A stretch of 64,000 nt of DNA, taken from assembly GCA_937898755.1 (NCBI GenBank), contig CALEJU010000025.1, positions 16,000 to 79,999 on the forward strand, read 5' to 3'. Source of the DNA: an uncultured Acidobacteriota bacterium (GTDB lineage: Bacteria; Acidobacteriota; Terriglobia; Terriglobales; SCQP01). Positions 30,288 to 44,217 of this stretch are shown here, piece after piece. Numbering within the stretch: the stretch's first letter is position 1; each line of letters begins with the position of its first letter. Below the pieces are notes generated by a model. The model was not told the DNA's origin and searched no databases. It was given only the letters and a program-made list of their open reading frames with translations. Made by a program: the position numbers and the translations under genes.

Positions 30288-31421
30288 ATGCGACTTTCCA
30301 GATCAATTGTCGGCCCGGAAGAACAGGCTGCGGTGCGGCGCATCCTGGAACTTGGATTCCTGGGCACTGGACCAGAGACCCAGGCACTGGAAAGGGAACT
30401 GGCGGAATATCTGGGCGGGGGCGTGGAGGTGGCCTGTGTCAACACCGGCACTGCGGCTCTCCACCTGGCGTTGCAGGCCTGCGGACTCGGTGCGGATGAC
30501 GAAGTTCTTGTCCCATCGCTCACCTTTGTGGCCAGCTTCCAGGCGATCGCGGCGACCGGAGCGACTCCGGTCGCCTGCGACATCAATCCGGAGAATGGTT
30601 TATTGGATCTGGCCGATGCGGCGCGGCGGTTGACCCCCCGAACCCGCGCCGTCATGCCGGTTCACTACGCAAGCCACTGCGGTGATCTGGATAAAATTCT
30701 TGCATTTGGAAAGCGGCACGGGCTGCGCGTGATTGAAGACGCGGCGCACTCCTTCGGATGCACTTACCAAGGTTCGAAAGTTGGCACGCTGGGTGACGTC
30801 GCCTGCTTTAGTTTCGATGGCATCAAGAACATCACTTGTGGGGAAGGTGGTGCGGTTGTTTCCCGGGACCCGGAGGTCATGCGCCGCGTACGCGATGCGC
30901 GCCTGCTCGGGGTGGAACGAGACACCGAAAACCGCTATCAGCGCCAGCGAAGCTGGGATTTTGACGTTACTGAACAAGGTTGGCGCTACCATATGAGCGA
31001 TATCATGGCTGCCATCGGCCGCGTGCAATTGCGCCGCCTGGAAGGGGAATTCAAGCCCCGGAGGGTGCGCTCTGCCCGGCTCTACCGCGAGCAGCTGGCG
31101 AACGTCCCCGGAGTCCGCTTTCTGGCGACCAATCTCGAAGCAGTGGTCCCGCATATCCAGCCGGTTCTGATTCTGGACGGACGGCGCGACGCCGTCCGTC
31201 AGACGCTGATGGAAGCCGGAATTGAGACCGGGATTCATTACAAGCCGAATCACCTGCTGAAGAAATTTGGTGGAGGTACGGTCTCGCTTCCCGCGGTCGA
31301 GCAGATCTATTGTCAGTTGCTGACCTTGCCGCTCCACCCCGACATCACCGATCAGGACGTCGAGCAGGTGGTTCTTCATCTGCGCCGCGCCGTCGGGCAC
31401 GTTGCGGCCACAGTTGCCTGA
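30288..31421 (+). CDS. DegT/DnrJ family aminotransferase
   Basis: NTGTAALHLAL, PSLTFVAS, MPVHYA, IEDAAHSFG, FSFDGIKNITCGEGG. Confidence 0.92.
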   Translation: MRLSRSIVGPEEQAAVRRILELGFLGTGPETQALERELAEYLGGGVEVACVNTGTAALHLALQACGLGADDEVLVPSLTFVASFQAIAATGATPVACDINPENGLLDLADAARRLTPRTRAVMPVHYASHCGDLDKILAFGKRHGLRVIEDAAHSFGCTYQGSKVGTLGDVACFSFDGIKNITCGEGGAVVSRDPEVMRRVRDARLLGVERDTENRYQRQRSWDFDVTEQGWRYHMSDIMAAIGRVQLRRLEGEFKPRRVRSARLYREQLANVPGVRFLATNLEAVVPHIQPVLILDGRRDAVRQTLMEAGIETGIHYKPNHLLKKFGGGTVSLPAVEQIYCQLLTLPLHPDITDQDVEQVVLHLRRAVGHVAATVA

Positions 31422-31459
31422 AGGCCCACGCCTTCAACCAGGGCGCCTTGGTACCTATC

Positions 31460-32260
31460 ATGTCTCAATCGTCTGCTGAAATACCCGTCGTGATCTTCTG
31501 CGGCGGACTGGGGAGCCGCCTGCGACAGGAAACCGAACTCCGTCCGAAGCCGATGGTGGAGATTGGCGGCCGCCCAATTCTCTGGCACATCATGAAGCTT
31601 TACGCTCATTATGGCCACCGGCGCTTTGTGCTTCCCTTGGGATATAAGGGGGAGGTCATCAAGCAATACTTCTATCATTACTCGCTGCTCAGCCATGACG
31701 TGACCGTGCGACTGGGTCGCAATCGTGGGGTGGAAATCCACAATAATGGCGATGAGGGCGACTGGAGTATCACGCTGGTGGAAACCGGGGAAAATACATT
31801 GAAGGGCGGCCGGCTGAAGCGCGTGGCGCCGTATCTGCCAGGCGACCGTTTCATGGTTACTTATGGTGACGGGGTCGCTGATATCGATATTGACGCGCTT
31901 CTCCGCTTCCACCAGAGCCACGGTCGGCTCGCGACCCTCACCGGTGTGCGCCCCCCCTCGCTGTTCGGGGAATTACGGATTGAAGATGGCAAAGCCTCGC
32001 TCTTCGTGGAAAAGCCCCAGACCTCGACCGGGGTCATCAATGGTGGTTTCTTCGTCTTCGAGCGCGCCGTGCTCGACTACCTGACGGACGCGGAGGATTG
32101 CGACTTCGAAACCGGTCCACTGGAACGGCTGGCGGCGGAGGGAAATCTCATGGTCTACGGGCACCACGGGACCTGGGCCTGCATGGACACCTTTCGCGAC
32201 GTGCAATACTTGAATCGCCTGTGGGCGCAAAAACAGGCGTTCTGGAACATGTGGAAATAA
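31460..32260 (+). CDS. rfbF: Glucose-1-phosphate cytidylyltransferase
   Basis: CGGLGSRLRQET..PKPMVEIG, LGYKGEVIK, TLKGGRLKRV, TYGDGVAD, INGGFFV, CMDT. Confidence 0.93.
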   Translation: MSQSSAEIPVVIFCGGLGSRLRQETELRPKPMVEIGGRPILWHIMKLYAHYGHRRFVLPLGYKGEVIKQYFYHYSLLSHDVTVRLGRNRGVEIHNNGDEGDWSITLVETGENTLKGGRLKRVAPYLPGDRFMVTYGDGVADIDIDALLRFHQSHGRLATLTGVRPPSLFGELRIEDGKASLFVEKPQTSTGVINGGFFVFERAVLDYLTDAEDCDFETGPLERLAAEGNLMVYGHHGTWACMDTFRDVQYLNRLWAQKQAFWNMWK

Positions 32261-32263
32261 GCA

Positions 32264-33289
32264 ATGGGCCTGACCAAAAGTCCGACTTACTGGTTTCAGC
32301 GCAATGTTCTGGTCACCGGATGCACGGGATTGCTGGGGCCATGGCTGACTCAATCTCTCGTCGAAGGTGGCGCGCGGGTCGCAGGCATCGTGCGGGATTC
32401 AGTGCCGCGGTCCAATCTGGAGCTGTTTGGTCTGGCGTCCAGAATCGCCGTGGTGCGCGGCGACATCGCCGAATATGACCTGGTGGAACGTACTCTCAAT
32501 GAGTACGAGATCGATACCGTGTTCCATCTGGCCGCGCAAACCATCGTGGGAATTGCGAACAACGGGCCGCTCTCGACCTTCGAGACCAACATCAAAGGGA
32601 CGTGGAACCTGTTGGAAGCCGCGCGGCGCCTGCCCACGGTTCGTTCGATCATCGTGGCCTCGAGCGATAAAGCCTATGGCGATCAGCCCGTCCTGCCGTA
32701 CCGGGAGGACGCGCCGCTGCAGGGCCGCCACCCCTACGACGTATCGAAGAGCTGCGCGGACCTTATCGCTTCCGCTTACTTTCATACTTACCGGCTTCCC
32801 GTCTGTGTCACCCGCTGCGGCAACCTGTTTGGCGGCGGCGATCTGCATTTCAATCGCCTGGTTCCCGGTACCATTCGCTCGGTGGAAAACGGTGAGCCGC
32901 CGGTACTGCGCAGCGACGGAACCTTCCTGCGCGATTATCTTTACGTCCGAGATGCCGTCGATGCATACATGACGGTGGCCGAAGCCATGCAGGACGACCA
33001 GCTACACGGGGAGGCATTTAACTTCAGCCTGGAACGCCCACTCACGGTACTGCAAATGACCCGCGCCATCCTGGCTGCGATGGATTGCGAGGACGTTGTT
33101 CCGACCATTTTGAACGCCGCTCACGGCGAAATTCAACATCAATACCTCTCTTCGGAAAAAGCTCGCCGCGTCCTGGGCTGGACACCAGCCTGCGGCTTGG
33201 AGGAGGGGCTCAAAGAGACGGTCCAATGGTACAGGGGGTATCTCGGTGATCGAGGGAGTCGTCATCACACCGTTGCGTCAAATTCCTGA
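32264..33289 (+). CDS. rfbG: CDP-glucose 4,6-dehydratase family SDR
   Basis: [48 protein letters not shown]. Confidence 0.85.
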
Positions 33290-33695
33290 CGAGCGCGGTA
33301 AGATCATGCATATGATGCGCTGCGACGATCCGCAGTTCGAGCGCTTTGGTGAAATCTATTTTTCCGGGGTGTACCCCGGAGCCATCAAGGCCTGGCACGT
33401 TCACCGCGAAATGACGCTCCATTACGCGGTGGTGATCGGCATGATTAAATTCGTCCTCTACGATGCACGCCCCGGCTCGCCCACGCACGGCGAACTGCAG
33501 GAGATCTTCATGGGGGAGCAGAACTATTGTCGTGTCAGAGTGCCGCCAGGCGTCTACAATGGCTTCAAGGGGATGGGGACAGAGATGGCGCTGGTTGCGA
33601 ACTGTCCCACGCTGCCCTTCGACGCCAATGAAATCGAGCGCCTCGATCCGTTTTCCACCGCCATCCCCTATAACTGGGAGATCCGTCACGGATGA
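33246..33695 (+). CDS. RmlC-like cupin (NDP-4-keto-6-deoxyhexose epimerase/isomerase)
   Basis: [37 protein letters not shown]. Confidence 0.85.
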
Positions 33696-34612
33696 GTGCG
33701 CCACGGGTCAGTGTCATCATCAATTGTCTCAATGGTGAGAAATATCTCCGCGAGGCCATCGACAGTGTTTTTGCCCAGACCGTTCAGGACTGGGAACTGA
33801 TTTTTTGGGACAACGTTTCGACCGATGCCACCGCATCCATCGCGCAAGGGTACGGGGACCAGTTGCGCTATTTTCGGGCGGAAGCAACAACTCCGCTGGG
33901 AGAGGCGAGAAGTCTCGCGTTTGCACAGGCGCGGGGTGAATTCGTGGCGATTCTGGATGCCGATGACGTCTGGCTGCCGGAGAAGTTGGAACAACAACTC
34001 CCGCTCTTCGACGACCCGGAAGTCGGGGTGGGATTCTGCGATGCCGTCTACTTCAACGAACAGGGAATCACCTGGCGACTGTACCGGGACGGCCCGCCGC
34101 CTCAAGGTTGGGTGCTCCGCCGGCTCCTTCGCAGCGACTTCATCTGCCTGTCCACCGCAATCGTCCGCCGCGCCGCGCTAGTCGCACTCGACCACTGGTT
34201 TGACCCGCAATTACAATATGTTGAGGAATACGACCTGTTCCTTCGCCTGGCATTAAAGTGGAAATTTGCCGGCGTGTGGGCGCCCCTGACGCGCTACCGC
34301 ATCCATGCGCAGAACTGGACCTCGCTGCATCCCGAGATGCAGGCCGAGGAGACGCCCCGGGTTTTCAACAACCTGCGGCGATTAGTTCCGAATCTGGACC
34401 GGGAGTATGGTCGAGAACTGGCCGCCCACGAGCGCGCCGTGCGGCGGCGGCGAGCGGAGGCGGCCTTGCGGCGGAACGACCGCTCCGGTTGTCGCGCGGC
34501 GGTACGCCCCGACGCGCCGCGCGACTGGCGCTCCGGGCTGATTTTCTTGATCAGCTTCCTGCCCCTCCGTCTCTATGTTTTTCTCCGGCAGCGTTACCGG
34601 CACACGTACTGA
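33692..34612 (+). CDS. GT2 glycosyltransferase
   Basis: VSVIINCLNGEKYLREAIDSV, DNVSTD, LDADDVW..KLEQQ, EEYDLFLR. Confidence 0.93.
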   Translation: MSAPRVSVIINCLNGEKYLREAIDSVFAQTVQDWELIFWDNVSTDATASIAQGYGDQLRYFRAEATTPLGEARSLAFAQARGEFVAILDADDVWLPEKLEQQLPLFDDPEVGVGFCDAVYFNEQGITWRLYRDGPPPQGWVLRRLLRSDFICLSTAIVRRAALVALDHWFDPQLQYVEEYDLFLRLALKWKFAGVWAPLTRYRIHAQNWTSLHPEMQAEETPRVFNNLRRLVPNLDREYGRELAAHERAVRRRRAEAALRRNDRSGCRAAVRPDAPRDWRSGLIFLISFLPLRLYVFLRQRYRHTY

Positions 34613-34665
34613 GCGTTCGTGCACAGGGGTGGACTGGTATTTCACTTTGGAAACAGGAATTTAAA

Positions 34666-36135
34666 TTGTCGATCCGATTCACGACTGTCGTTCAGGTATT
34701 GCTTGGCGTTCTTTGGCTTGTGGCCGGAGCAGGAGCGGCCGCCAGCTCCGGTGCGTCTGAGTTGGAACTGGCCTGCGCCGGATTATATTTGACCACCATC
34801 CTGTTTCTGTGGTTCGGTGTGCGCTTGAATGCGGTGTTCCTCAAGGTTTATTGCCTATTCTTCACCATCTGGTTTCTCCTCCGTGTCCCGTACATTGTCT
34901 GGAGCCCGGCATCCTATCTGTACGCCGCCCAGGACCCCCTTACCGCCTCCCGGATCGCCCATGATCTGACCATTCTGATGGGGTTCCATCTGGCGATGGG
35001 AGCCATGGCGCTACTGACCGATATTCAATTTCCTCTTGCGGTGGATTCGCTGCTGGCACCTGCCTACGCCGCGGACCTGCTGCGTCGCCTGCTCCCGCTA
35101 CTGATCGCGATGGAGGCTGTTGCGGTCGCCCAGGCGCGGTTCACCCAGTTCGGCGCCGTCTGGGGATTTCTGCGGCATTTTGCCGAGACGGACCTGATCT
35201 TAAGAGTCGTAGCCTATCTCGCCTGCGTTGCCTATCCGTGGAAAGGCCAAACCCGCATTTATGTCGGGATGTGCGCAGGGGCCGTGGTGATTGAATCGGC
35301 CCTGACGGGCTCGCGAGCGGGTATTTACCTGCTGGCCCTCCCCGTGTTCTTGTTCATGATGGCCCGGAAACAGGTCCGGATCCGGTTGACGGTGACGCGC
35401 ATCATCGCCGGCCTGTTGTTTGTACCGGCCGCCTTCGGCTCGTATTACATCGGCACCGTGCTGCGCCAGGCTCGGGCCGAAAATGTCAACCATGATGTGA
35501 AGATTTCAGAGATTCCAAGCTATTTAAAGGAGCACCCCTTGTCTCAGGGCGAGCAGGGGGAGTCCTTTGCGGATCGCGTGAGTCAACGGGTCACCGCGCT
35601 CGACTTTTATATGGTCGTCGTGGATCGCGAAAACTCACGAGATGCTCACGAAGTTAGTTTCTCGAATGTCTTCAAGGAAATTGCCAACGAGATCGTGCCG
35701 GGCGACATTTATCCGGGCAACCATGACACGGCGCTCCTGTTCACCGTCGACTACGAGGGCATGCCGCTCGACCAGATTGCGTATGTGTACACCTCCCGGG
35801 TGCCGGGACTGTTTGCCACCGCCGTCGCCCTGAGCTCGGTCGCCTGGGGCGTGCCCCTGATGCTGCTTCTCTGGCTGGTGTACCTGGCGATTGCCATGAC
35901 CGTGCTGCAGGTTACCCCTGGTTCCTTCCACGGCATCGTGTCGTTCCTGATCGTTTATGAAGCCTACTCGTTTTTTTTGATGATGGGCGTCGATCGATTT
36001 TTTTTCACGGAGCTGGTGGGTTACTACGTCGTGCAGGGCGTGATTGTGGGCACATTCCTCTTTTTCGTGCGGGGACGAGCCGTGCTTCCAGACAACGAAT
36101 ACGGGCTGACGACGGCCGCTGCCGGGCGCCCCTAG
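34666..36135 (+). CDS. Wzy-like polysaccharide polymerase (polytopic membrane protein)
   Basis: Multiple TM segments, LTGSRAG motif, large loop; position in Wzx/Wzc operon; TTG start after AGGA. Confidence 0.7.
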   Translation: MSIRFTTVVQVLLGVLWLVAGAGAAASSGASELELACAGLYLTTILFLWFGVRLNAVFLKVYCLFFTIWFLLRVPYIVWSPASYLYAAQDPLTASRIAHDLTILMGFHLAMGAMALLTDIQFPLAVDSLLAPAYAADLLRRLLPLLIAMEAVAVAQARFTQFGAVWGFLRHFAETDLILRVVAYLACVAYPWKGQTRIYVGMCAGAVVIESALTGSRAGIYLLALPVFLFMMARKQVRIRLTVTRIIAGLLFVPAAFGSYYIGTVLRQARAENVNHDVKISEIPSYLKEHPLSQGEQGESFADRVSQRVTALDFYMVVVDRENSRDAHEVSFSNVFKEIANEIVPGDIYPGNHDTALLFTVDYEGMPLDQIAYVYTSRVPGLFATAVALSSVAWGVPLMLLLWLVYLAIAMTVLQVTPGSFHGIVSFLIVYEAYSFFLMMGVDRFFFTELVGYYVVQGVIVGTFLFFVRGRAVLPDNEYGLTTAAAGRP

Positions 36136-36178
36136 CCGGGGTGCGATCGTCGGCATCAGACGCAGCGCCCATCCCTTT

Positions 36179-39100
36179 TTACGGCATACGGTACTGCGCG
36201 ACCAGGTTGGCGTCCGCCGGGCTGGTGGCGCAGCCACTGGCGGCCGTGGTCACGGCCAGCGTAACGGGCGTCCCGGCGGCCAGGCTCAGTACGATGGCGC
36301 CGGAGTCGTTGCCGGCTGCCAGAATCGGAAGGGTGACAACGGCGCCGCCCTGCGTCAGGCTGACCACGGCGTTGGTCGTACAGCCGGCGGGCGCGGTTTT
36401 CACCGTGGCCTGCAGGCGTGTCACGATGATCGGAAGGTCGGGGGTCCAGGTTAAGGCAGTCCAAGGGGTGGTCAGGACGCCGGGCAGGAAGGCCGCCAGG
36501 CTCATGCGCAGCGCCGACTGCACGGCCAAGGTTCCGGAGGCGGCAGGATTCGTGATGGTCGCAGCGCCGACCACATAGCTGGCAGGTTCGGTCAATTGCG
36601 CCAGATGCAGATCCAGGCTCCCCTGGGCCGCTCCGGCAAAATTGGGTCGCTGAAGGCTGGGTGCGGTGAGGGAGGCGCCGGTGTCCAACACCAGATTCCC
36701 GTTGCCGCTGCTGGCGCCAGTCTGCAGAAGTGTGTTGCCGAGATAGAAACCGCTGCCCACCTTGAACGGTTCTCCCCACCAGCCCACGCTACCGCCGCGG
36801 AGATCGAGGATCGGGCAGGTCGCCGGCAGGGACGCCGGGAACCCGGAGCCGTTGGCGCCGGCCAGGCCGGGGTAAAGGGTCAGAATGCCCCTGCTGCAAC
36901 TGGGATTGGTCAAGGCGGCGGCGAGGGCGTCGCTGAGCGACGCGTTGGCGCCGGTCAGCGGACTGAGAGTGCCCAGGCCAAGGAAGGGGCTCGTTCCGGT
37001 CAGGGAGCCATTGGACGTGTCAATGATTCCTTGAGCGAACTGAGAACGGCCTGCCGGCACTGCTGCCCCGTCCGGCTGCGAGGTGGCCACGGTATAGCTG
37101 GTCGCGGTCGGTACACTGCGGATCTGGTAGGTTCCATTACTGGCGCTGTCGGCGCCGATGATTTGAACCCAGTCACCGGGAAGAAAGGTGTGGGGAACGG
37201 AGGTCACCGCCGTCAGTGTTCCACTGGTTCGCGTCAGCGAGGCGTTGAGCAGTTGCCCGGCGGAGGACTCGAACCCGCCGCTTTCAACGTCGTGGGCCTC
37301 GACCTGGCCGTTGCCGCTGACGAGCACGGGCAGGCCGCCGGTGAAGACGCGATCCAGTACGACGCGCGCGCCGCTTTGCACGCGCAGGGCCTGGTGCGCT
37401 GTTTCCCAACTTCCCGAATTGCGGATGGTCAGGTCGCTGACGCGCAGCAGATCGCCGGCCATGGCGTCCAGAAAAAAGCCGTTTTCATCGTACGCCGAGG
37501 TGAAACGCAGCGCCACGGCTTCCGCGGAAATTAACACGGAGGCGCTGTTGATGGCGCCCAACGGCGGAAAATAGCACTGGTCAAAGCCGCCGTAATTCCC
37601 GCTGACCCAGTACACGGAATGTCCGCCGGCGCCCTGCGTCATGGAATCCTCAAGGCCTTGGGACGCGACCCACTCGGTATCGAAATTGCCACTGCCGTAG
37701 TTGACCAGCCACCCGCCGCCGTTCGTGAGATCGGTCGCGGTGGTGGTGCAGTTGCCGAGAATCCGCTCGCATCCGTTGTGGTTCCATTCAACGTTGTCGA
37801 ACAGGAGCTCGCCGAGCAGCCCGCGGCCCGCGTAGGGAGTCGCGCCGGCGCTGCCGATGACGCCGCCGAAATAGCGGGCCCAGCTCAGCCCGACATTGGA
37901 AACCCGAAGTTGCAGGTTGATGGCCGGGGCCCCGGCGGCGTCGGTCGGAATCTGGAGCGCGTAGGAGGCCAGCCCTCCCGCGTCCAGCCGCAAATCACGA
38001 AGCCGCCAATTGCTGCCGGAGATGGTGAGCAGCGCCTTGTCGGTTCCGCTGGCCGGCACGCCGCCTGCCGCGCCCGTGTAAACCAAGCGGGTTCCGAAGC
38101 CGAGACCGTATGGACCTGGATCGCCGTCTCCCGAGACAACGACACCATCCCGCTGCAACACCAGCGGCGCCGTTGTCAGGTAGATCCCGTGAGGGAAGTA
38201 GAGCGTCCCGAATTGCGGGGACAAGGCTCCGACGGCGGCTTGGATGGCTTGCGTATCATCGTGACCCCAGAGGGCAAAGCCTGATCCTGTTCCGACGTTG
38301 CGAGATGCTGCCGCGGCCATGGTGATCTGGGTGGGGCTGTTATAGCTTTGGATGGTGCTGACCAGGGTTGTCCCCCCCGCTCCGCACTGGTAGGCGAGGA
38401 TCTGTTCTCCGACCGCCGCGGAAGTGAAGCGCGGCTCGGTCGGCGCGGTGTAGGTGGCGTCGAGGGTGTAGAGGTTGGACCCGGCGCTGCAGCTCCCATG
38501 CGAGGTGGCGACCCCGTCACCCGTGGCCCCGTAGGCGCGCACGTCAATGGTCGAGCCGGTCGGGCTGTACCAGCCGCTTCCGGTATCCACCGTCAGGTTC
38601 CGGGCGCCGTCGGCGGTGAAGGCAAGCCGCCCGGCGACGCCGGCGGGCGGCAGCGCACTGGTGATCGAGGGGGTGATCACGGGCCAGGACCATCCAGCTG
38701 CTCCGAGACTGGAGACCGCACGATACGCTCCGCCGCTCCACCCGTAAGTGGTGACGGTGGCGTGCCGCTCGTCGATCAGCAGCGTGCCTGAGCTGGCGCT
38801 CACCTGTTGCAGCATCGCATCGGATCCCTGCCAATCCGGTGAAAGAATCACCGTTCCGCCACCCGGTCCCAACCATCTGATGGCCTCCTGCAGCCCTCCT
38901 GTCGCGGAGCGCAACGTCAACTTTCCCGGGTGCGCCCGCAGGAGGACAGCCTGAAACCGGCAGTTCCCTCCGGCATAGGTCACCGATTGGGGAATGATGT
39001 TCTCGCTGTTCCCTGCAGCATCGCTGAGCGTGAGCAGGGTGCCATTGCTCACGGGGGCCAGGGGCGGCCCGTCCGGCAAGGTGACGGTACAGGGCTGCAA

Positions 39101-39328
39101 GCTCAACGTCACCGTTCCCGCAGGAACGGATAACGGACTCCCCAGCGTCCACGCACCAAATTGGCTGGCATACACCCGTCCTGCGATAACCGGCTTGATA
39201 AACCCAATCGCCTGGGCGTCCAGTCGGCCGGTGTATCCACCACTGCTGAACGTCATGACGACCACAGCGGCGATGCCGGTGAGCCGGGTGCTTGGTCGGC
39301 GGGACATCCCGCCTTTACTGTTGGGCAT
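36179..39328 (-). CDS. Large secreted protein with pectate-lyase-3/tailspike-like beta-helix module
   Basis: Signal-peptide-like N-terminus; IDVRAYGATGDG ... DDTQAIQAAV..GTLYFPHGIY; beta-strand-rich, Gly/Thr/Ser-rich. Confidence 0.75.
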   Translation of the reverse strand: MPNSKGGMSRRPSTRLTGIAAVVVMTFSSGGYTGRLDAQAIGFIKPVIAGRVYASQFGAWTLGSPLSVPAGTVTLSLQPCTVTLPDGPPLAPVSNGTLLTLSDAAGNSENIIPQSVTYAGGNCRFQAVLLRAHPGKLTLRSATGGLQEAIRWLGPGGGTVILSPDWQGSDAMLQQVSASSGTLLIDERHATVTTYGWSGGAYRAVSSLGAAGWSWPVITPSITSALPPAGVAGRLAFTADGARNLTVDTGSGWYSPTGSTIDVRAYGATGDGVATSHGSCSAGSNLYTLDATYTAPTEPRFTSAAVGEQILAYQCGAGGTTLVSTIQSYNSPTQITMAAAASRNVGTGSGFALWGHDDTQAIQAAVGALSPQFGTLYFPHGIYLTTAPLVLQRDGVVVSGDGDPGPYGLGFGTRLVYTGAAGGVPASGTDKALLTISGSNWRLRDLRLDAGGLASYALQIPTDAAGAPAINLQLRVSNVGLSWARYFGGVIGSAGATPYAGRGLLGELLFDNVEWNHNGCERILGNCTTTATDLTNGGGWLVNYGSGNFDTEWVASQGLEDSMTQGAGGHSVYWVSGNYGGFDQCYFPPLGAINSASVLISAEAVALRFTSAYDENGFFLDAMAGDLLRVSDLTIRNSGSWETAHQALRVQSGARVVLDRVFTGGLPVLVSGNGQVEAHDVESGGFESSAGQLLNASLTRTSGTLTAVTSVPHTFLPGDWVQIIGADSASNGTYQIRSVPTATSYTVATSQPDGAAVPAGRSQFAQGIIDTSNGSLTGTSPFLGLGTLSPLTGANASLSDALAAALTNPSCSRGILTLYPGLAGANGSGFPASLPATCPILDLRGGSVGWWGEPFKVGSGFYLGNTLLQTGASSGNGNLVLDTGASLTAPSLQRPNFAGAAQGSLDLHLAQLTEPASYVVGAATITNPAASGTLAVQSALRMSLAAFLPGVLTTPWTALTWTPDLPIIVTRLQATVKTAPAGCTTNAVVSLTQGGAVVTLPILAAGNDSGAIVLSLAAGTPVTLAVTTAASGCATSPADANLVAQYRMP

Positions 39329-39538
39329 GATGCGATTTTCCTTTTGCGGGACGGCCGACCGTCTGGAACCGTCCCCAAGCGTCTCGTGCTGCTCGTGTTA
39401 GGATGGGCGGGATCCGTGTCAGCGACAGTTCTTTTTTTGCGCTTTTTTGTCTTCCATATCTTGACGAAAGTTTAGGTGTGCCGGCGATCGTCTGCAACAG
39501 TCCACCTCGACCCGAGGTCGCGCACGGACCTTATTCCA

Positions 39539-40879
39539 ATGTTCAATCTGCGAGCCGAGGTCCGTTGTGGACGCACCCCAATTGCCGCGCTGCTACTGGC
39601 GGCGACGCTGATGTTTTCATGGCTGGGCTGGTGGGCGGTGCGGACCGGGTTGAGCGATGCCGCCGCGGACGCCGGGTCCGCCGCACTGCAGAGGGTCGAT
39701 GCGGGGTCTGGCTGTGATTGGTTCCTGACCGCCGTCCACTACCGCCCGGACCTGGCCGCCAATTGGCGGCGCGCTGCCGACTGTTTTTCCTTCGATGATC
39801 CGCAGCGCGCGCTGGGCATGGTCAGAACTTCGCTCGCCCTCAATCCCCACGATTGGCGGGCTTGGGCGTTGCGGAGCCGGATCGAACTTCAGTTGGGCGA
39901 TGAGACGGCCGCCCGCCAGTCGCTGCAGAGCGGCCTCCAAATAGATCGTGGATTCCAGCCGCATTATGAGTTTGCCGGCCTGCTTCTGCTGATGGGGGAT
40001 GCCGACGGCTTTTGGCGGGAGATGAAGCGGGCGTGGACTCTGATCCCGGAAACGGAGGTTCCCAACGTCCTGCCGATCTGTTGGGCGCGGGCACAAGGCA
40101 ATGTCACCCTCGTGACCGCGCTGCTGCCGGAGAACCGCCCGAATATCGTGGCGGCCGCGATGAACTGGGAATTGCATGCGGATCAACCGGCGGCCGCGGC
40201 CGCCGCCTGGCCTCGTCTGCACTGCAACCAGCAGACCGCTGCGACCTGTCGGAATGTCGCCGTCAATCTGGCCGCCATGCTGGCCAACTCCGCCTATCAA
40301 GACGGTCAGCTCTCGCCTGGCCAGCGGCAGGGGAACGTCACCCTGGCCGTGGACGTCTGGAATGGCGCCGTATCGCAGGGCATTCTGCCCCAGCCGCGCG
40401 TCCAGTTCGGCCGCGTGATGGATGGTTCGTTTCTTCGGAATTGGGAAGACGCTGGCTTCTCCTGGCAACCATCCGCCACTGGCCTTCCAGTGCAGCGTGA
40501 TGCCGGCGAGGACGGCAACAGCCGCATCCAGGTGCAGTTTTCCGGAACACAGCCGGAACAATCCAATCTCATCGGCCAGTTTGTCCCGGTTACTCCGGGC
40601 AGCCGGTACCGGCTCATCTTCCGCGCCCGCGGCGACGCTCCTTCCATGGACTCTACCGGCGGGTTACTCCTAGTCGTCAGCAGTTCTCCCCAACAGCGAT
40701 TGTTGTCCATTCCCGCTCCCCTCCATAGCGAGTGGAGATCGGCGGAATCCGAATTTCAGGCGCCCGCCGATCGGAACCTGATTCGCCTCTCATTTCAATA
40801 TGAACGGCCCCAGGGGGCGGTTCGTTTAACAGGTAACGCGGAAATGACCGGGGTAAACCTCGAACCGGTGAGCCAGTGA
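39539..40879 (+). CDS. Membrane-anchored TPR-like protein with C-terminal beta-sandwich (CBM-like) domain
   Basis: N-terminal TM helix; helical repeats (LALNPHDWRAW); C-terminal QFVPVTPGSRYRLIFRAR..W...EFQAP. Confidence 0.6.
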   Translation: MFNLRAEVRCGRTPIAALLLAATLMFSWLGWWAVRTGLSDAAADAGSAALQRVDAGSGCDWFLTAVHYRPDLAANWRRAADCFSFDDPQRALGMVRTSLALNPHDWRAWALRSRIELQLGDETAARQSLQSGLQIDRGFQPHYEFAGLLLLMGDADGFWREMKRAWTLIPETEVPNVLPICWARAQGNVTLVTALLPENRPNIVAAAMNWELHADQPAAAAAAWPRLHCNQQTAATCRNVAVNLAAMLANSAYQDGQLSPGQRQGNVTLAVDVWNGAVSQGILPQPRVQFGRVMDGSFLRNWEDAGFSWQPSATGLPVQRDAGEDGNSRIQVQFSGTQPEQSNLIGQFVPVTPGSRYRLIFRARGDAPSMDSTGGLLLVVSSSPQQRLLSIPAPLHSEWRSAESEFQAPADRNLIRLSFQYERPQGAVRLTGNAEMTGVNLEPVSQ

Positions 40880-42246
40880 GAATCAACGCGCGTTCCGATC
40901 GATTGGCCGTGGTGGCATTGATTTGTGCCCTGGTCCCGACCGTGTTCGGTGTGCTCGCCTTCGGCGGCGTCTACAGTTGGGCGTGGGCGAGTGCGGATCT
41001 CCTGCTTTTCGCCGCAACTGTCCTCGTGCTCGCGCTGGCCTGGAAGGGCAACCTGCGGTTGCCCTTGCACCCCGTCCTCTTTCCCGCGGCTGTTTTCTGG
41101 ATGTTGGGACTGGCGCAGTGGCTCTTTCACATCTCGGTGGATCGCGGCGCGACGCTGACCCAAATCATTCAATTGGCGGGGAACGGCTGCGTCCTCCTTC
41201 TCGCTCTCCTTGCCTTTCGACGCGCAGAAAACCTGCGCCGCTTGGGCTGGGTCATCTGGAGCTTGGCGGCAGGGATTTCGGTGGAGGCGATCCTCCAGAC
41301 CTTAACCGCGCATGATCGCATCTATTGGTTTCACGATGCCTCCTATGCGACTCCGGTAGGACCGTTTGTTTATCACAACCACTTCGCCGGGTGTCTTTGC
41401 CTTTTGTTGCCGGTGACCTTTGCCATTGCCTTCCGGTCCAGCCGAACGGGAACCACCGATTGGACCACCTGGTTGCGACGTGCCTTGGTGCCCTGCCTGA
41501 CGGGCGTCGCCCTCATGTTGTCCCTCTCCCGCGGGGGGATGCTTTGCGTGGCCTTCGAGGGTCTTTTGGCCATGGCTTGGTTCGTCCGCCGCCCAGCCAC
41601 TTTGCTGCGCCCCATTCTCCTGTTTGTCTTGCTGGCCGGCAGTTTTGCGGCACTTACCAACTGGCATGCCATGCGCGACCGCTTCCAACTCCTGGAGCAC
41701 AAAGACGCCAGTGTTGAGGATCGTTTGCGCGTGTCTGCCACGTGTCTGCAGATCTTTCGGCACTATCCCTTGTTTGGCGCCGGCATGGGGACTTTTCCCT
41801 CTGTCTATCCCGCCTACGAGACCTTTGACCTTGGTCTGCAGTTCGAACAAGCACACGATGAATTCGCCCAGACGCTCGCCGAGACTGGAATACTGGGGAT
41901 GCTGATGGTTTTTGCGGTCCTGTGGATGTGGTACGGCGCAGGTCGGCGCCTGCGCCATACCGCGGAGGGTCACCTTTCCACTGCGGTTCAATCTGCCGCC
42001 TGGATTTCGGTGGCAGGGCTGGTGTTGTACAGTAGCTGGGACTTTCAGTTCCACAGTCCTGGAAATGGGCTCCTTTTTTTTGTCCTCCTGGGAGCCGCGC
42101 TTTCACCGGTTCCGTCGGCATCCCGCACTGCGGCCACGTCCCCGTCCAGCCACAGCCGGCGGCAAGAAATTGAGCATGGCCGAATGGCATTGCTCCCGTC
42201 ACTCCCGGCCAGCGCCCCAAGGGAGCAGACGTCCAAACTGAGTTAA
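40876..42246 (+). CDS. O-antigen ligase / Wzy_C family membrane protein
   Basis: YHNHFAG, LSLSRGG, P.FGAGMGTF, QAHDEFAQTLAETGILG, WDFQFH. Confidence 0.85.
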   Translation: MRINARSDRLAVVALICALVPTVFGVLAFGGVYSWAWASADLLLFAATVLVLALAWKGNLRLPLHPVLFPAAVFWMLGLAQWLFHISVDRGATLTQIIQLAGNGCVLLLALLAFRRAENLRRLGWVIWSLAAGISVEAILQTLTAHDRIYWFHDASYATPVGPFVYHNHFAGCLCLLLPVTFAIAFRSSRTGTTDWTTWLRRALVPCLTGVALMLSLSRGGMLCVAFEGLLAMAWFVRRPATLLRPILLFVLLAGSFAALTNWHAMRDRFQLLEHKDASVEDRLRVSATCLQIFRHYPLFGAGMGTFPSVYPAYETFDLGLQFEQAHDEFAQTLAETGILGMLMVFAVLWMWYGAGRRLRHTAEGHLSTAVQSAAWISVAGLVLYSSWDFQFHSPGNGLLFFVLLGAALSPVPSASRTAATSPSSHSRRQEIEHGRMALLPSLPASAPREQTSKLS

Positions 42247-42407
42247 GCGGCTGGCCCTCGAAAATCAATTAAAGGGTCAGCACATTTTCTCCAACCTTCC
42301 GCCAAGTGGAAATAAACTCAGCTGATTCTGCTGAAATGCCCGGCATTCACCCGGGCCACTGTGGTCAAAGGGACAAACAGGACCGAACACGGGCAAGAGG
42401 TTGACGG

Positions 42408-43655
42408 CTATGCCTGAAGAACTTTGCGGTAGCATTGTTCCAGTTGGTCTACGTGGGCTGCGGGCGTCGGCGGCGAGCTCCAGAATCGCTCGTACGCGGC
42501 GCGGCCCAAGCGAGAGGCCAACTCCGGGTCTTGGAATTGCCTGATTTTGCGGACGAGATCCTCGACGTCTCCGCTGCGAAAGCAGAGCCCAGTCTCACCT
42601 TGCACCACACTATCGCGGACAGCAGACGCATCTGGCACGATGGCGGGTACGCCGCAAGCAGCCGCCTCAAGGACGACCAATCCAAAGGTTTCATACCACA
42701 GCGAGGGAAAGACGAGTGCGCGCGATCCCTCCAGGCGGCGAACCAGTTTCTCGTGCGGCAGCCATCCTGTAACCCCATGTTCGGGGTACCGCGTAGTGAT
42801 TTCCTGCCTTAGATACCCATCGCCCACGAATTCCAGTTCCACTCCGGCGCGCCTTGCCGCTTCGGCTGCGAGAAAAGGTCCTTTTTCCCGGGTCAACCGG
42901 CCGACGACTACATAACGCGTATTACGGCCGACATCCGCACACGATACACGCTCCGACTCAATCGGGTTCGAGATGCGATAAATCGACGCATTGTCTGGTA
43001 AATACGGGGCAATAATATTATAAGAGAAATCGGAAATGGCGATAAAATGACGAACCCCATTGGGCAGTTGGCCCTGATGACTCTGAACATAGTGGCGAGT
43101 GGTCCGCCATAACTTCTGCGCCCTCCCCCGAGGATCGCAGTTCGACAACAGGCACGCGGTCGAAAGCGGACTTAGAGTGCAGCTCCGCTCGGCAACGTAG
43201 TTAAAGAAGCCTCCGTTCGGACAGGCGAGGAAATAATCATGCAAGGTGGCCAGCAGGCCCGCTCCATGCCGAAGGATTTCCGGCACAATACTGGAGGATA
43301 AGGCCTTGGTCCAACCATGCAGGTGCACGACGGTTCGCCGCGGGTCCAGAGGACGCAGCAAGTCGGCCATTGCCGCCGCCGCTGGTCGATTCCAGATGCC
43401 CTGGTAAGCCGCCTGGAGACGATTGGGATTGAGCAGGATGTCAGGCTGTCCGGTGCACACAACGCGAACTCCGTCCGCCTCCAGCGTGGGCTCGACGGGC
43501 GGAACAGCGCAGAAAAGTCGGACATCATGACCACGGCGAGCGAGTTCGCGCGCACTGGCAAAGGCAACCTGACCGGCCCCGCCGTTGACATGACCATAGT
43601 CGTTGACCACAACAATCGTGAGGCGGTCACTGGGCAGGATCTTCGGAGAGGCCAT
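42408..43655 (-). CDS. GT4 glycosyltransferase
   Basis: NGGAGQV, HLHGW, LHDY, VGRLTREKG, FPSLWYETFGLVVLEAAACGVP; start placed at ATG 43655. Confidence 0.92.
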   Translation of the reverse strand: MASPKILPSDRLTIVVVNDYGHVNGGAGQVAFASARELARRGHDVRLFCAVPPVEPTLEADGVRVVCTGQPDILLNPNRLQAAYQGIWNRPAAAAMADLLRPLDPRRTVVHLHGWTKALSSSIVPEILRHGAGLLATLHDYFLACPNGGFFNYVAERSCTLSPLSTACLLSNCDPRGRAQKLWRTTRHYVQSHQGQLPNGVRHFIAISDFSYNIIAPYLPDNASIYRISNPIESERVSCADVGRNTRYVVVGRLTREKGPFLAAEAARRAGVELEFVGDGYLRQEITTRYPEHGVTGWLPHEKLVRRLEGSRALVFPSLWYETFGLVVLEAAACGVPAIVPDASAVRDSVVQGETGLCFRSGDVEDLVRKIRQFQDPELASRLGRAAYERFWSSPPTPAAHVDQLEQCYRKVLQA

Positions 43656-44217
43656 AAGTAGTTTCCTGCGGGGCAGACGGCAGCGGTTTGATGACCAGTT
43701 CGGACTTTCCGTAAACCAAGCTGTTGGCGGGAATATCCTTCGTGACAATCGTATGGGCGCCGACCACCGCGTTATCGCCTATTGTGACACCGGCGCCAAC
43801 AAACACCTTTGTTCCGAGCCAGACATTACGACCGATACGCACAGGTTTGCTGCGGAAGCCCTGGAGGCGGAGCGGGGCGCCGGGATTGCCGAAAGTATGG
43901 TTGTGATCGTAGATGGTGACATATTCACCAATAAGAGTTTCCTCGCCGATCTCAATGCCTGCACGGGTGACCACAGAACAACCCCTGTTCATGAACACGC
44001 GGCTTCCGATCTTGAGGGTGGCTCCGTTGCGAGCATCCAGGACGGAGCCACGGCGCACATAGACACGGCTGCCGAAGTCCATGGACGAATTGCCATCGAG
44101 AATCAGTTCAACATCCCGTTCAAGGGACAGCGAGAATGATTGCAGCCGCAAGCGACCTGCATGTCTCAGCTTAAGACCAACGAGCCGCAGCCCGAACCAA
44201 ACATATTTCCATTTCAT
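43627..44217 (-). CDS. Hexapeptide-repeat sugar O-acyltransferase
   Basis: IGSRVFMN, IGEYVTIYDHNH, IGRNVWLG, IGDNAVVGA..VTKDIP. Confidence 0.9.
   Translation of the reverse strand: MKWKYVWFGLRLVGLKLRHAGRLRLQSFSLSLERDVELILDGNSSMDFGSRVYVRRGSVLDARNGATLKIGSRVFMNRGCSVVTRAGIEIGEETLIGEYVTIYDHNHTFGNPGAPLRLQGFRSKPVRIGRNVWLGTKVFVGAGVTIGDNAVVGAHTIVTKDIPANSLVYGKSELVIKPLPSAPQETTYGLSEDPAQ

Follow-up and report, generated by a model that had tools for sequence, protein, structure and literature searches.

A tailspike-like beta-helix protein with a predicted export signal, encoded antisense within a surface-glycan locus of an uncultured acidobacterium

The stretch of DNA analysed here (the window) comprises 64,000 nucleotides of contig CALEJU010000025.1 (assembly GCA_937898755.1) from an uncultured Acidobacteriota bacterium of the lineage SCQP01, and contains a surface-glycan locus that extends from ~9 kb to 50 kb of the window (roughly 40 kb). 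Within this locus, on the strand opposite to most of the glycan genes, lies a gene for a large modular protein built like a phage tailspike. The reading favoured here, to which we assign a probability of about 0.55, is that its product is an exported, probably trimeric depolymerase or trimming enzyme specific for the glycan of its own host, of the kind represented by WceF and RbmB. The evidence for this reading comes from the anatomy and fold of the protein, from the conserved association of such genes with the glycan machinery and from a core held in common with a phage family resident in these bacteria.

The open frame at 36179-39328 on the minus strand, with 1049 codons, is a genuine gene. 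The Joint Genome Institute (JGI) gene caller gives the identical gene on the same metagenome contig, its G+C content at third codon positions (GC3) is of the coding type at 0.784 with a genome mean of 0.773, and no competing open reading frame (ORF) on the plus strand exceeds 312 aa. The gene and the modules of its product are arranged as follows.

36179..39328, minus strand: whole gene for the putatively exported modular tailspike-like protein, 1049 aa plus stop codon
39209..39328, minus strand: putative signal peptide, aa 1-40, with MSRRPSTR n-region, LTGIAAVVVMTF h-region and AQA cleavage motif
38579..39208, minus strand: N-module, aa 41-250, with invariant W, P, H, S-x3-GLQE, GG-V, W and D-R, common with slot proteins of the resident phage family
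38513..38545, minus strand: first half of the pectate-lyase-3 (PL3) start motif (VRAYGATGDG), aa 262-272
38264..38512, minus strand: B1 insert, aa 273-355, a small beta-barrel inside the PL3 motif, kept in all central homologs and in phage proteins
37259..38263, minus strand: second half of the PL3 motif (DDTQAIQ, 357-363) and right-handed parallel beta-helix, aa 356-690
37037..37249, minus strand: F module, aa 694-764, a small FCCH-like beta-barrel with PHTFLPGDWVQIIGADSASNGTYQ at 712-735
36689..37036, minus strand: P region, aa 765-880, ending LDLRGG..WWG, with weak similarity to the second half of the N-module
36182..36541, minus strand: C-module, aa 930-1049, a C1q/TNF-like jelly-roll knob with invariant C983, C1033 and R971, always at the extreme C-terminus

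The N-terminus has the layout of a signal peptide, an assignment that for this protein and its relatives alike is a heuristic one combining a hydrophobic window, a basic n-region and an AQA motif. The n-region is basic (K5, R10, R11 and R15), the hydrophobic core LTGIAAVVVMTF spans 12 residues within a hydrophobic window that scores 2.53, and AQA follows at 38-40. A putative signal peptide cleaved at about AQA40 would give the protein the kind of export signal carried by the self-glycanases of exopolysaccharide (EPS) loci, the class of WceF, RbmB, PslG and AlgL. The same heuristic scores a signal peptide in 36 of 42 relatives that carry the N-module. As the n-region includes an SRR motif, export by twin-arginine translocation (Tat) is a further possibility.

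The central block opens with a PL3 start motif in two pieces. YGATGDG is found at 266-272 and DDTQAIQ at 357-363, and the 84 aa between them interrupt the contiguous G-x-x-GDG...DDT-x-AIQ cap. The Pfam family PF12708 matches marginally and partially (29.4 bits with a cut-off of 27, E=8.4e-7; residues 356-403, covering only positions 15-63 of a 213-position profile), and as the match leaves out the first 14 profile positions and starts at residue 356, the start motif is taken to be split. The insert is found in every central homolog, in phrog_32881, in a 'pectin lyase-like protein' of Burkholderia phage BcepMigl and in a Streptomyces phage minor tail protein, and is a subfamily trait and no accident of one gene. 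The B1 insert itself (38264-38512) is weakly similar to a decoration protein of a phage capsid (PDB 8eci_1, E=0.035), with which it has in common the motif F.A.DVG.TI....G....TTI......T...A, presumably one of wide occurrence in beta-helix proteins.

An AlphaFold2 (AF2) model of residues 255-880, computed as a monomer from a 7-sequence alignment with the modules predicted separately, is nearly all beta, with a predicted local distance difference test score (pLDDT) of 76 and a predicted template modelling score (pTM) of 0.79. The top Foldseek matches of its helix in the PDB, at probability 1.0, are phage tailspikes, namely LKA1 gp49, phi297 gp61, Sf6, HK620, CBA120 TSP2/4, AP22 gp54 and Klebsiella K2 enzymes (entries at probability 1.0 include 4ru4, 2vbe, 6w4q, 4y9v and 8iq5). 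Matches are also found to GH87 glucanases, rhamnogalacturonase A, AlgE4 and the Vibrio cholerae lyase RbmB (9ozl and 9ozd, E about 5e-4). The fold class is secure, and a close structural homolog is lacking among the matches. Residues D445, N548, Y613, E615, N616, R636 and H645 are invariant among the 7 central relatives, and the tyrosine, arginine and histidine would, speculatively, suit a lyase.

The F module, with its PHTFLPGDWVQIIGADSASNGTYQ segment (PHTF..GDW..NGTY), forms a small barrel in the AF2 model. It matches phrog_9998 over aa 696-759 (E=7.7e-4) and gives no match to Pfam E1_FCCH in the tailspike-like protein. It occurs twice in the relative P0011, and also in a phage fibre-like protein that matches tail-fibre PHROGs and is closer to phrog_9998 (2.5e-11), with E1_FCCH and an endosialidase beta-barrel below cut-off.

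The C-terminal ~110-120 residues are predicted with a pLDDT of about 98 as a nine-strand sandwich. Its best PDB match is the tail fibre of Agrobacterium phage 7-7-1, with a query-normalised template modelling score (TMq) of 0.57-0.60 and a root-mean-square deviation (rmsd) of 3.2-3.3, followed by jelly-rolls of the C1q/TNF type and of capsid protrusions. In BFVD, 65 matches at E<=1e-3 include tail-fibre proteins and the knobs of collagen-like proteins, as well as a phiRSL1 protein that carries PF12708 too. The module ends 0-9 residues from the C-terminus of its protein in 112 of 112 matches, and 1-2 residues from it in nearly all. Its conservation is high, about 50% identity across proteins with different cores, which fits a structural or partner-binding role and not glycan specificity. 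The C1q/TNF-like knob fold is typically trimeric.

The initial annotation, made from the letters alone, had described a signal peptide, a PL3 motif split by an insert of ~85 aa, a beta-helix-like core, a PHTF module resembling small barrels of phage tails and a beta-rich C-terminus. Each element of this description is borne out: by the heuristic export signal, by an insert of 84 aa, by the modelled helix (Foldseek probability 1.0, at TM-scores of 0.2-0.37), by the phrog_9998 match and the recurrence of the 712-735 segment in homologs, and by the C-terminal jelly-roll.

For the N-module and the C-module, no relative was found in Pfam, in NCBIfam or among PDB sequences. The whole protein likewise had no match in NCBIfam, and PDB sequence searches with the protein, the N-module, the C-module and the copy from genome G006 returned nothing useful. 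A weak repeat of the form ..GG.V.L.P.W.G....L.D.R.G..WYG is common to the N-module, in its second half (38654-38900; aa 143-196), and the P region (36773-36934; aa 799-852); hhalign aligns the two copies with 47% probability (E=1.9e-4), and they may represent an internal duplication flanking the beta-helix. A 281-aa protein of the phage contig L100 (L100:1197-2042) is weakly similar to the N-module (E=3e-5, 32% over 115 aa), so that phages may also encode this fold on its own.

Searched exhaustively with HMMER, a set of 1.84 billion representatives yielded 702 relatives, and modules were mapped in the best 149. Six separable modules are distinguished in these 149: N (about 40-250), B1 (273-355), H (356-690), F (694-764), P (765-880) and C (930-1049). 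They occur as C only in 91, N only in 27, N-C in 11 and B1-H-F-P in 6, as well as in F-C, P-C and other combinations, and the tailspike-like protein is a mosaic of shuffling modules. The Pfam domains found in 43 relatives bearing N or C are solely of the beta-helix type (Beta_helix in 9, NosD in 6, PF12708 in 3 and K1-lyase_C in 1). With an alignment of a 5-sequence C-module subset, 75 C-module loci were recovered, nearly all from metagenome-assembled genomes (MAGs) of 'Ca. Acidoferrum', Acidoferrales or subdivision 2 in soil and peat, and at the level of sequence the N and C families are almost entirely confined to one acidobacterial order. These 75 loci were considered as glycan loci and rejected as such: no glycan gene of the window recurs in them, and they are syntenic and phage-like. 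Across them (L021-L095, e.g. L029:6896-10357) a C-knob protein of 1100-1500 aa lies between head and fibre genes, mostly starting with a conserved signal-peptide-like N-terminus of the form MIRSK..hydrophobic..AHAQGTRKDDIVFNSRG.

The locus around the gene encodes sugar epimerases, dehydratases, three DegT aminotransferases, a Wzx-like flippase, methyltransferases, a cytidine monophosphate (CMP)-sugar synthetase, glycosyltransferases of families GT2 and GT1, a nucleotidyltransferase, a uridine diphosphate (UDP)-glucose dehydrogenase and a nonulosonate pathway. The UDP-glucose dehydrogenase and the nonulosonate pathway make it probable that the polymer of the locus is acidic. The surrounding glycan genes are mostly on the plus strand, and three of them matter most for what follows.

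39476..40879, plus strand: tetratricopeptide repeat (TPR) protein, divergent neighbour, partner of Wzy_C, with a homolog in the locus of the relative P0002
40876..42246, plus strand: Wzy_C membrane protein, O-antigen ligase/polymerase-like, whose homolog abuts P0002
34666..36135, plus strand: 489-aa multi-pass membrane protein, convergent neighbour, without a Pfam family, with a homolog in the P0002 locus

Inspected by eye, the TPR protein seems to have a beta-rich binding domain as its C-terminal half. No phage genes lie within about 15 kb of the tailspike-like gene, and the antisense position in a glycan locus away from phage genes, which the initial annotation had pointed out, is therefore as described. 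The codon usage of the gene is native, more so than that of its glycan neighbours: its distance to the genome is 0.055, with a median of 0.082, as compared with 0.09-0.12 (GC3 0.62-0.73) for the flanking glycan genes (30288-44217) and 0.13-0.16 for the head-like, virion-structural and fibre-like genes of a phage contig of the same genome, the terminase of which is at 0.07. By both GC3 and codon-usage distance the sugar cassette looks more foreign than the tailspike-like gene. A recent foreign insertion or a phage remnant was considered and rejected on the native codon usage, the intact frame and the presence of a conserved ortholog.

This ortholog, P0002, is the nearest homolog, with 35% identity over 816 aa from N through P (loci L098/L099). 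It is the sole plus-strand gene among minus-strand glycan genes and abuts a Wzy_C gene. Its locus contains homologs of the Wzy_C protein (40%, E=1e-88), of the TPR protein (34%, E=5e-69) and of the 489-aa membrane protein (36%, E=6e-73), and these three form a conserved set across the family and the distant orthologous locus (L098 11916-14550, 19255-20715). As P0002 lies antisense in an orthologous locus with the same neighbours, both the association with glycan machinery and the antisense placement are conserved. Elsewhere in the family of the window's organism the TPR-Wzy_C pair is itself conserved, and further module-bearing genes are found in its vicinity. G006 encodes a 1079-aa protein with a signal peptide and the N-module, on the opposite strand in the TPR-Wzy_C locus and adjoining a GT1 gene, and G011 encodes a 576-aa protein with a signal peptide, a different beta-helix and a degenerate C-module, also on the opposite strand in that locus. 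A further such gene is possibly present in G003. The centres of the G006 and G011 proteins are related neither to each other nor to that of the window protein, and the membrane protein beside the G006 copy is not homologous to the membrane protein of the window. On a rough estimate, about 4 co-localisations of a module gene with TPR-Wzy_C are observed, with ~0.13 expected by chance. The gene thus lies inside the biosynthetic locus of a polymer, and does so across relatives.

The central block is also found on phage DNA. The relative P0003 carries the same block on the phage contig L100, together with co-directional genes and RusA, and the head protein and long fibre protein of L100 have homologs on L029 and on contig C24. 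A single assembly contains both P0002, in the host locus, and P0003, in the slot that follows the phage head gene, and the two are 61% identical over about 700 aa. The N- and C-modules of the window protein are likewise those of slot proteins in a phage family resident in these bacteria. Of 14 family genomes, 12 have exactly one copy of a head-like gene of this phage family, and in 7 relatives (G001, G003, G005, G007, G016, G020 and G022) N-module genes follow it, 0.3-3 kb downstream. A single copy in 12 of 14 genomes raises the choice between a widespread prophage and a domesticated element like a gene transfer agent (GTA), and the head-like gene of G011 (C77:26798-28036) has an in-frame TAA. 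As the phage protein has its core in common with a host protein embedded in a glycan locus, it would be directed at the surface glycan of the host.

In the genome of the window itself (G000, 99% complete), the phage family is represented by C24, a 19.1 kb phage or prophage contig with a terminase large subunit (E=5e-44) and HK97-type head-like, virion structural and long fibre-like proteins. Three of the four C24 genes tested are atypical in codon usage (GC3 0.90-0.93, distance 0.13-0.16); the terminase has a GC3 of 0.84. The genes that flank the slot are present on C24, with neither a spike gene nor a remnant of one between them, and the gene in the glycan locus is the only N- or C-module gene of G000. 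Similarly, in G006 and G011 no N- or C-module gene accompanies the head gene, and the one module gene of each genome lies in the glycan locus. C24 also has a 535-aa ORF (C24:3543-5150) with a CxxxCxxC-type motif, CPKHCSFCSVW, which by eye is suggestive of a radical-SAM enzyme.

The slot copies, too, start with signal-peptide-like N-termini, and are for that reason unlikely to be virion parts. A tailspike proper is phage-encoded and is held on the virion by an N-terminal adaptor; the window protein has a predicted export signal and no phage genes within about 15 kb. The initial annotation had proposed a domesticated depolymerase or lectin that trims, releases or anchors the polymer of its host, and this proposal is supported in part. 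The phage relationship stands, on the 61% identity of P0002 and P0003 and on the shared N- and C-modules, and so does the link to the host polymer, on the P0002 locus; to call the protein domesticated would in addition presuppose one direction of transfer. A tentative extension of these observations, which we regard as rather doubtful, is that hosts of the Acidoferrales type and their near-ubiquitous resident phage family draw on one pool of exported spike modules, with the spike gene alternating between the phage slot and the Wzy-type glycan locus and the slot empty where the locus has it. The two kinds of copies would then either replace or counteract each other, all of them acting after export and not on the virion.

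In the favoured reading, the tailspike-type protein would be exported and probably homotrimeric, and would belong to the Wzy-type surface-glycan locus around it. The central block, comprising the split PL3 cap with its B1 barrel, the beta-helix, the F barrel and the P region, would serve as the specificity module for the polymer of the locus, which would most likely be cleaved or trimmed outside the cytoplasm, in the periplasm or at the surface, and thereby be controlled in chain length, released or remodelled within a matrix. The C1q-like knob most likely nucleates and registers the trimer, and the N-module would act as a conserved adaptor or oligomerisation domain. The same modules would circulate between host glycan loci and a fixed phage slot because host and phage protein must recognise the same glycan.

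Several observations weigh against this reading. The TM-scores to tailspikes are low (0.2-0.37), as would be expected of a helix broken up by inserts, and the central alignment holds just 7 sequences, with a model pLDDT of 76. Profiles of PDB sequences match the N-cap motif only and yield no characterised active site that can be aligned, and none of the residues could be assigned as catalytic. Most of the family members that have the TPR-Wzy_C locus lack such a gene inside it, from which it follows that the spike is not essential for polymer synthesis. Finally, WceF also behaves as a lectin, which makes binding without efficient cleavage possible.

This last point leads to the strongest of the alternatives, a non-catalytic surface lectin, fibre or matrix cross-linker in which the helix and the knob bind the host's own polymer and anchor or organise it uncut. 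We consider it improbable, though the foremost competitor of a self-glycan depolymerase. The lack of an identifiable catalytic dyad is in its favour, the C1q-like knob and the small barrels are typical binding modules, and WceF agglutinates with its EPS in a lectin-like manner (PMC7949094). On the other hand, enzymes give the best structural matches, K1-lyase_C and PF12708 domains occur in relatives, and the helix has invariant Y-D-E-N-G, R and H residues that point to chemistry beyond a scaffold.

The sharing of the core with a phage slot protein would also be accommodated by a host counter-measure or conversion factor, in which an exported copy of the phage core would destroy the glycan receptor or hide it and so keep the resident phage from adsorbing. 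That G000, G006 and G011 keep their sole copy in the glycan locus, with no module gene beside the phage head gene, agrees with such a role, which is nonetheless quite unlikely: none of the PADLOC defence models is matched, and the conserved TPR/Wzy_C partnership and native codon usage point to a housekeeping function. Still less probable is a particle component, a receptor-binding spike supplied in trans from the glycan locus to the resident phage or to a GTA-like element, so that its specificity travels with the glycan type. Although N-module genes lie between head and fibre genes in 7 relatives and the slot is empty on this genome's phage contig, a cleavable export signal, which the slot copies carry as well, is incompatible with virion assembly in the cytoplasm, and C24 is compositionally foreign where the tailspike-like gene is native. 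Finally, an exported depolymerase directed for nutrition or competition at the polysaccharides of other organisms and placed in the glycan locus by chance is very improbable, since the association recurs well above the rough chance estimate and the ortholog P0002 has the same neighbours, even though the gene is opposite in strand to most of the locus and Acidobacteria are known polysaccharide degraders.

For a self-glycan depolymerase, the biological setting is one in which chain-length control of EPS and O-antigen and the remodelling of the matrix are essentially unstudied, namely soil Acidobacteria, which are abundant, slime-producing and uncultured. The tailspike-like gene offers a specific candidate for an enzyme whose presumed substrate, the polymer made by the locus around it, can be tested. 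The 61% identity of P0002 and P0003 is direct evidence for an exchange of specificity modules between host and phage, and adds another phylum to what had one well-studied precedent, WceF. The signal peptides predicted on phage-encoded copies challenge the assumption that tailspike-like phage proteins are virion parts, and the N-module and the C-knob represent unannotated families with hundreds of members.

Among known systems, the closest in kind is WceF of Pantoea stewartii, which is encoded in the stewartan EPS cluster, is exported by Tat and forms a beta-helical trimer whose N-terminal domains resemble those of phages. It is a slow hydrolase of stewartan, with which it also agglutinates, and when WceF is lost the EPS becomes longer (PMC7949094). 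WceF and the window protein have in common a gene within an EPS or Wzy-type cluster, an N-terminal export signal (a predicted one in the window protein), a right-handed beta-helix in a tailspike-like build, an N-terminal domain shared with phage proteins and a proposed role in chain length or the matrix. The two differ in that no sequence similarity is detectable between them and WceF falls outside the top 50 fold matches. The head domain of WceF is of the P22 type and its signal is one for Tat, whereas the window protein combines a novel N-module with a PL3 cap that a barrel interrupts, with an FCCH-like barrel and with a C1q-like knob. The family of the window protein has its core in common with a contemporary phage (P0002/P0003, 61%), and its host is an acidobacterium, while the host of WceF belongs to the Enterobacterales.

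RbmB, from the rbm biofilm cluster of Vibrio cholerae, is a lyase that degrades the exopolysaccharide of its own producer, Vibrio polysaccharide (VPS) (PMC11637428, PMC12993940). Like the window protein it is a beta-helix encoded within a matrix gene cluster, and its structures are among the fold matches. It is a single-domain helix of about 360-370 residues without N-module, inserts or C-knob, and its lyase chemistry is established, whereas the window protein may be a hydrolase or a lyase. We know of no sharing of phage modules by RbmB.

The tailspike depolymerases (LKA1 gp49, Sf6 TSP, HK620, CBA120 TSP2 and Klebsiella K2) resemble the window protein in their sequence of N-terminal adaptor, beta-helix with an inserted domain and C-terminal beta-sandwich. 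The window protein differs from them in its chromosomal gene within a glycan locus, native codon usage and predicted export signal, and their catalytic residues cannot be aligned with it. The tail-fibre knobs of phage 7-7-1 (PDB 9rkv) are like the C-module in their jelly-roll fold and invariably C-terminal position, at an identity of only 13%, but the knob of the window type is found on exported bacterial as well as phage-encoded proteins. A tailspike-like glycanase in an EPS locus is thus of a kind already known from WceF, and what is new here is the set of modules, the unannotated N and C families and the unusually direct evidence that modules are shared with a resident phage family, the copies of which have predicted export signals of their own.

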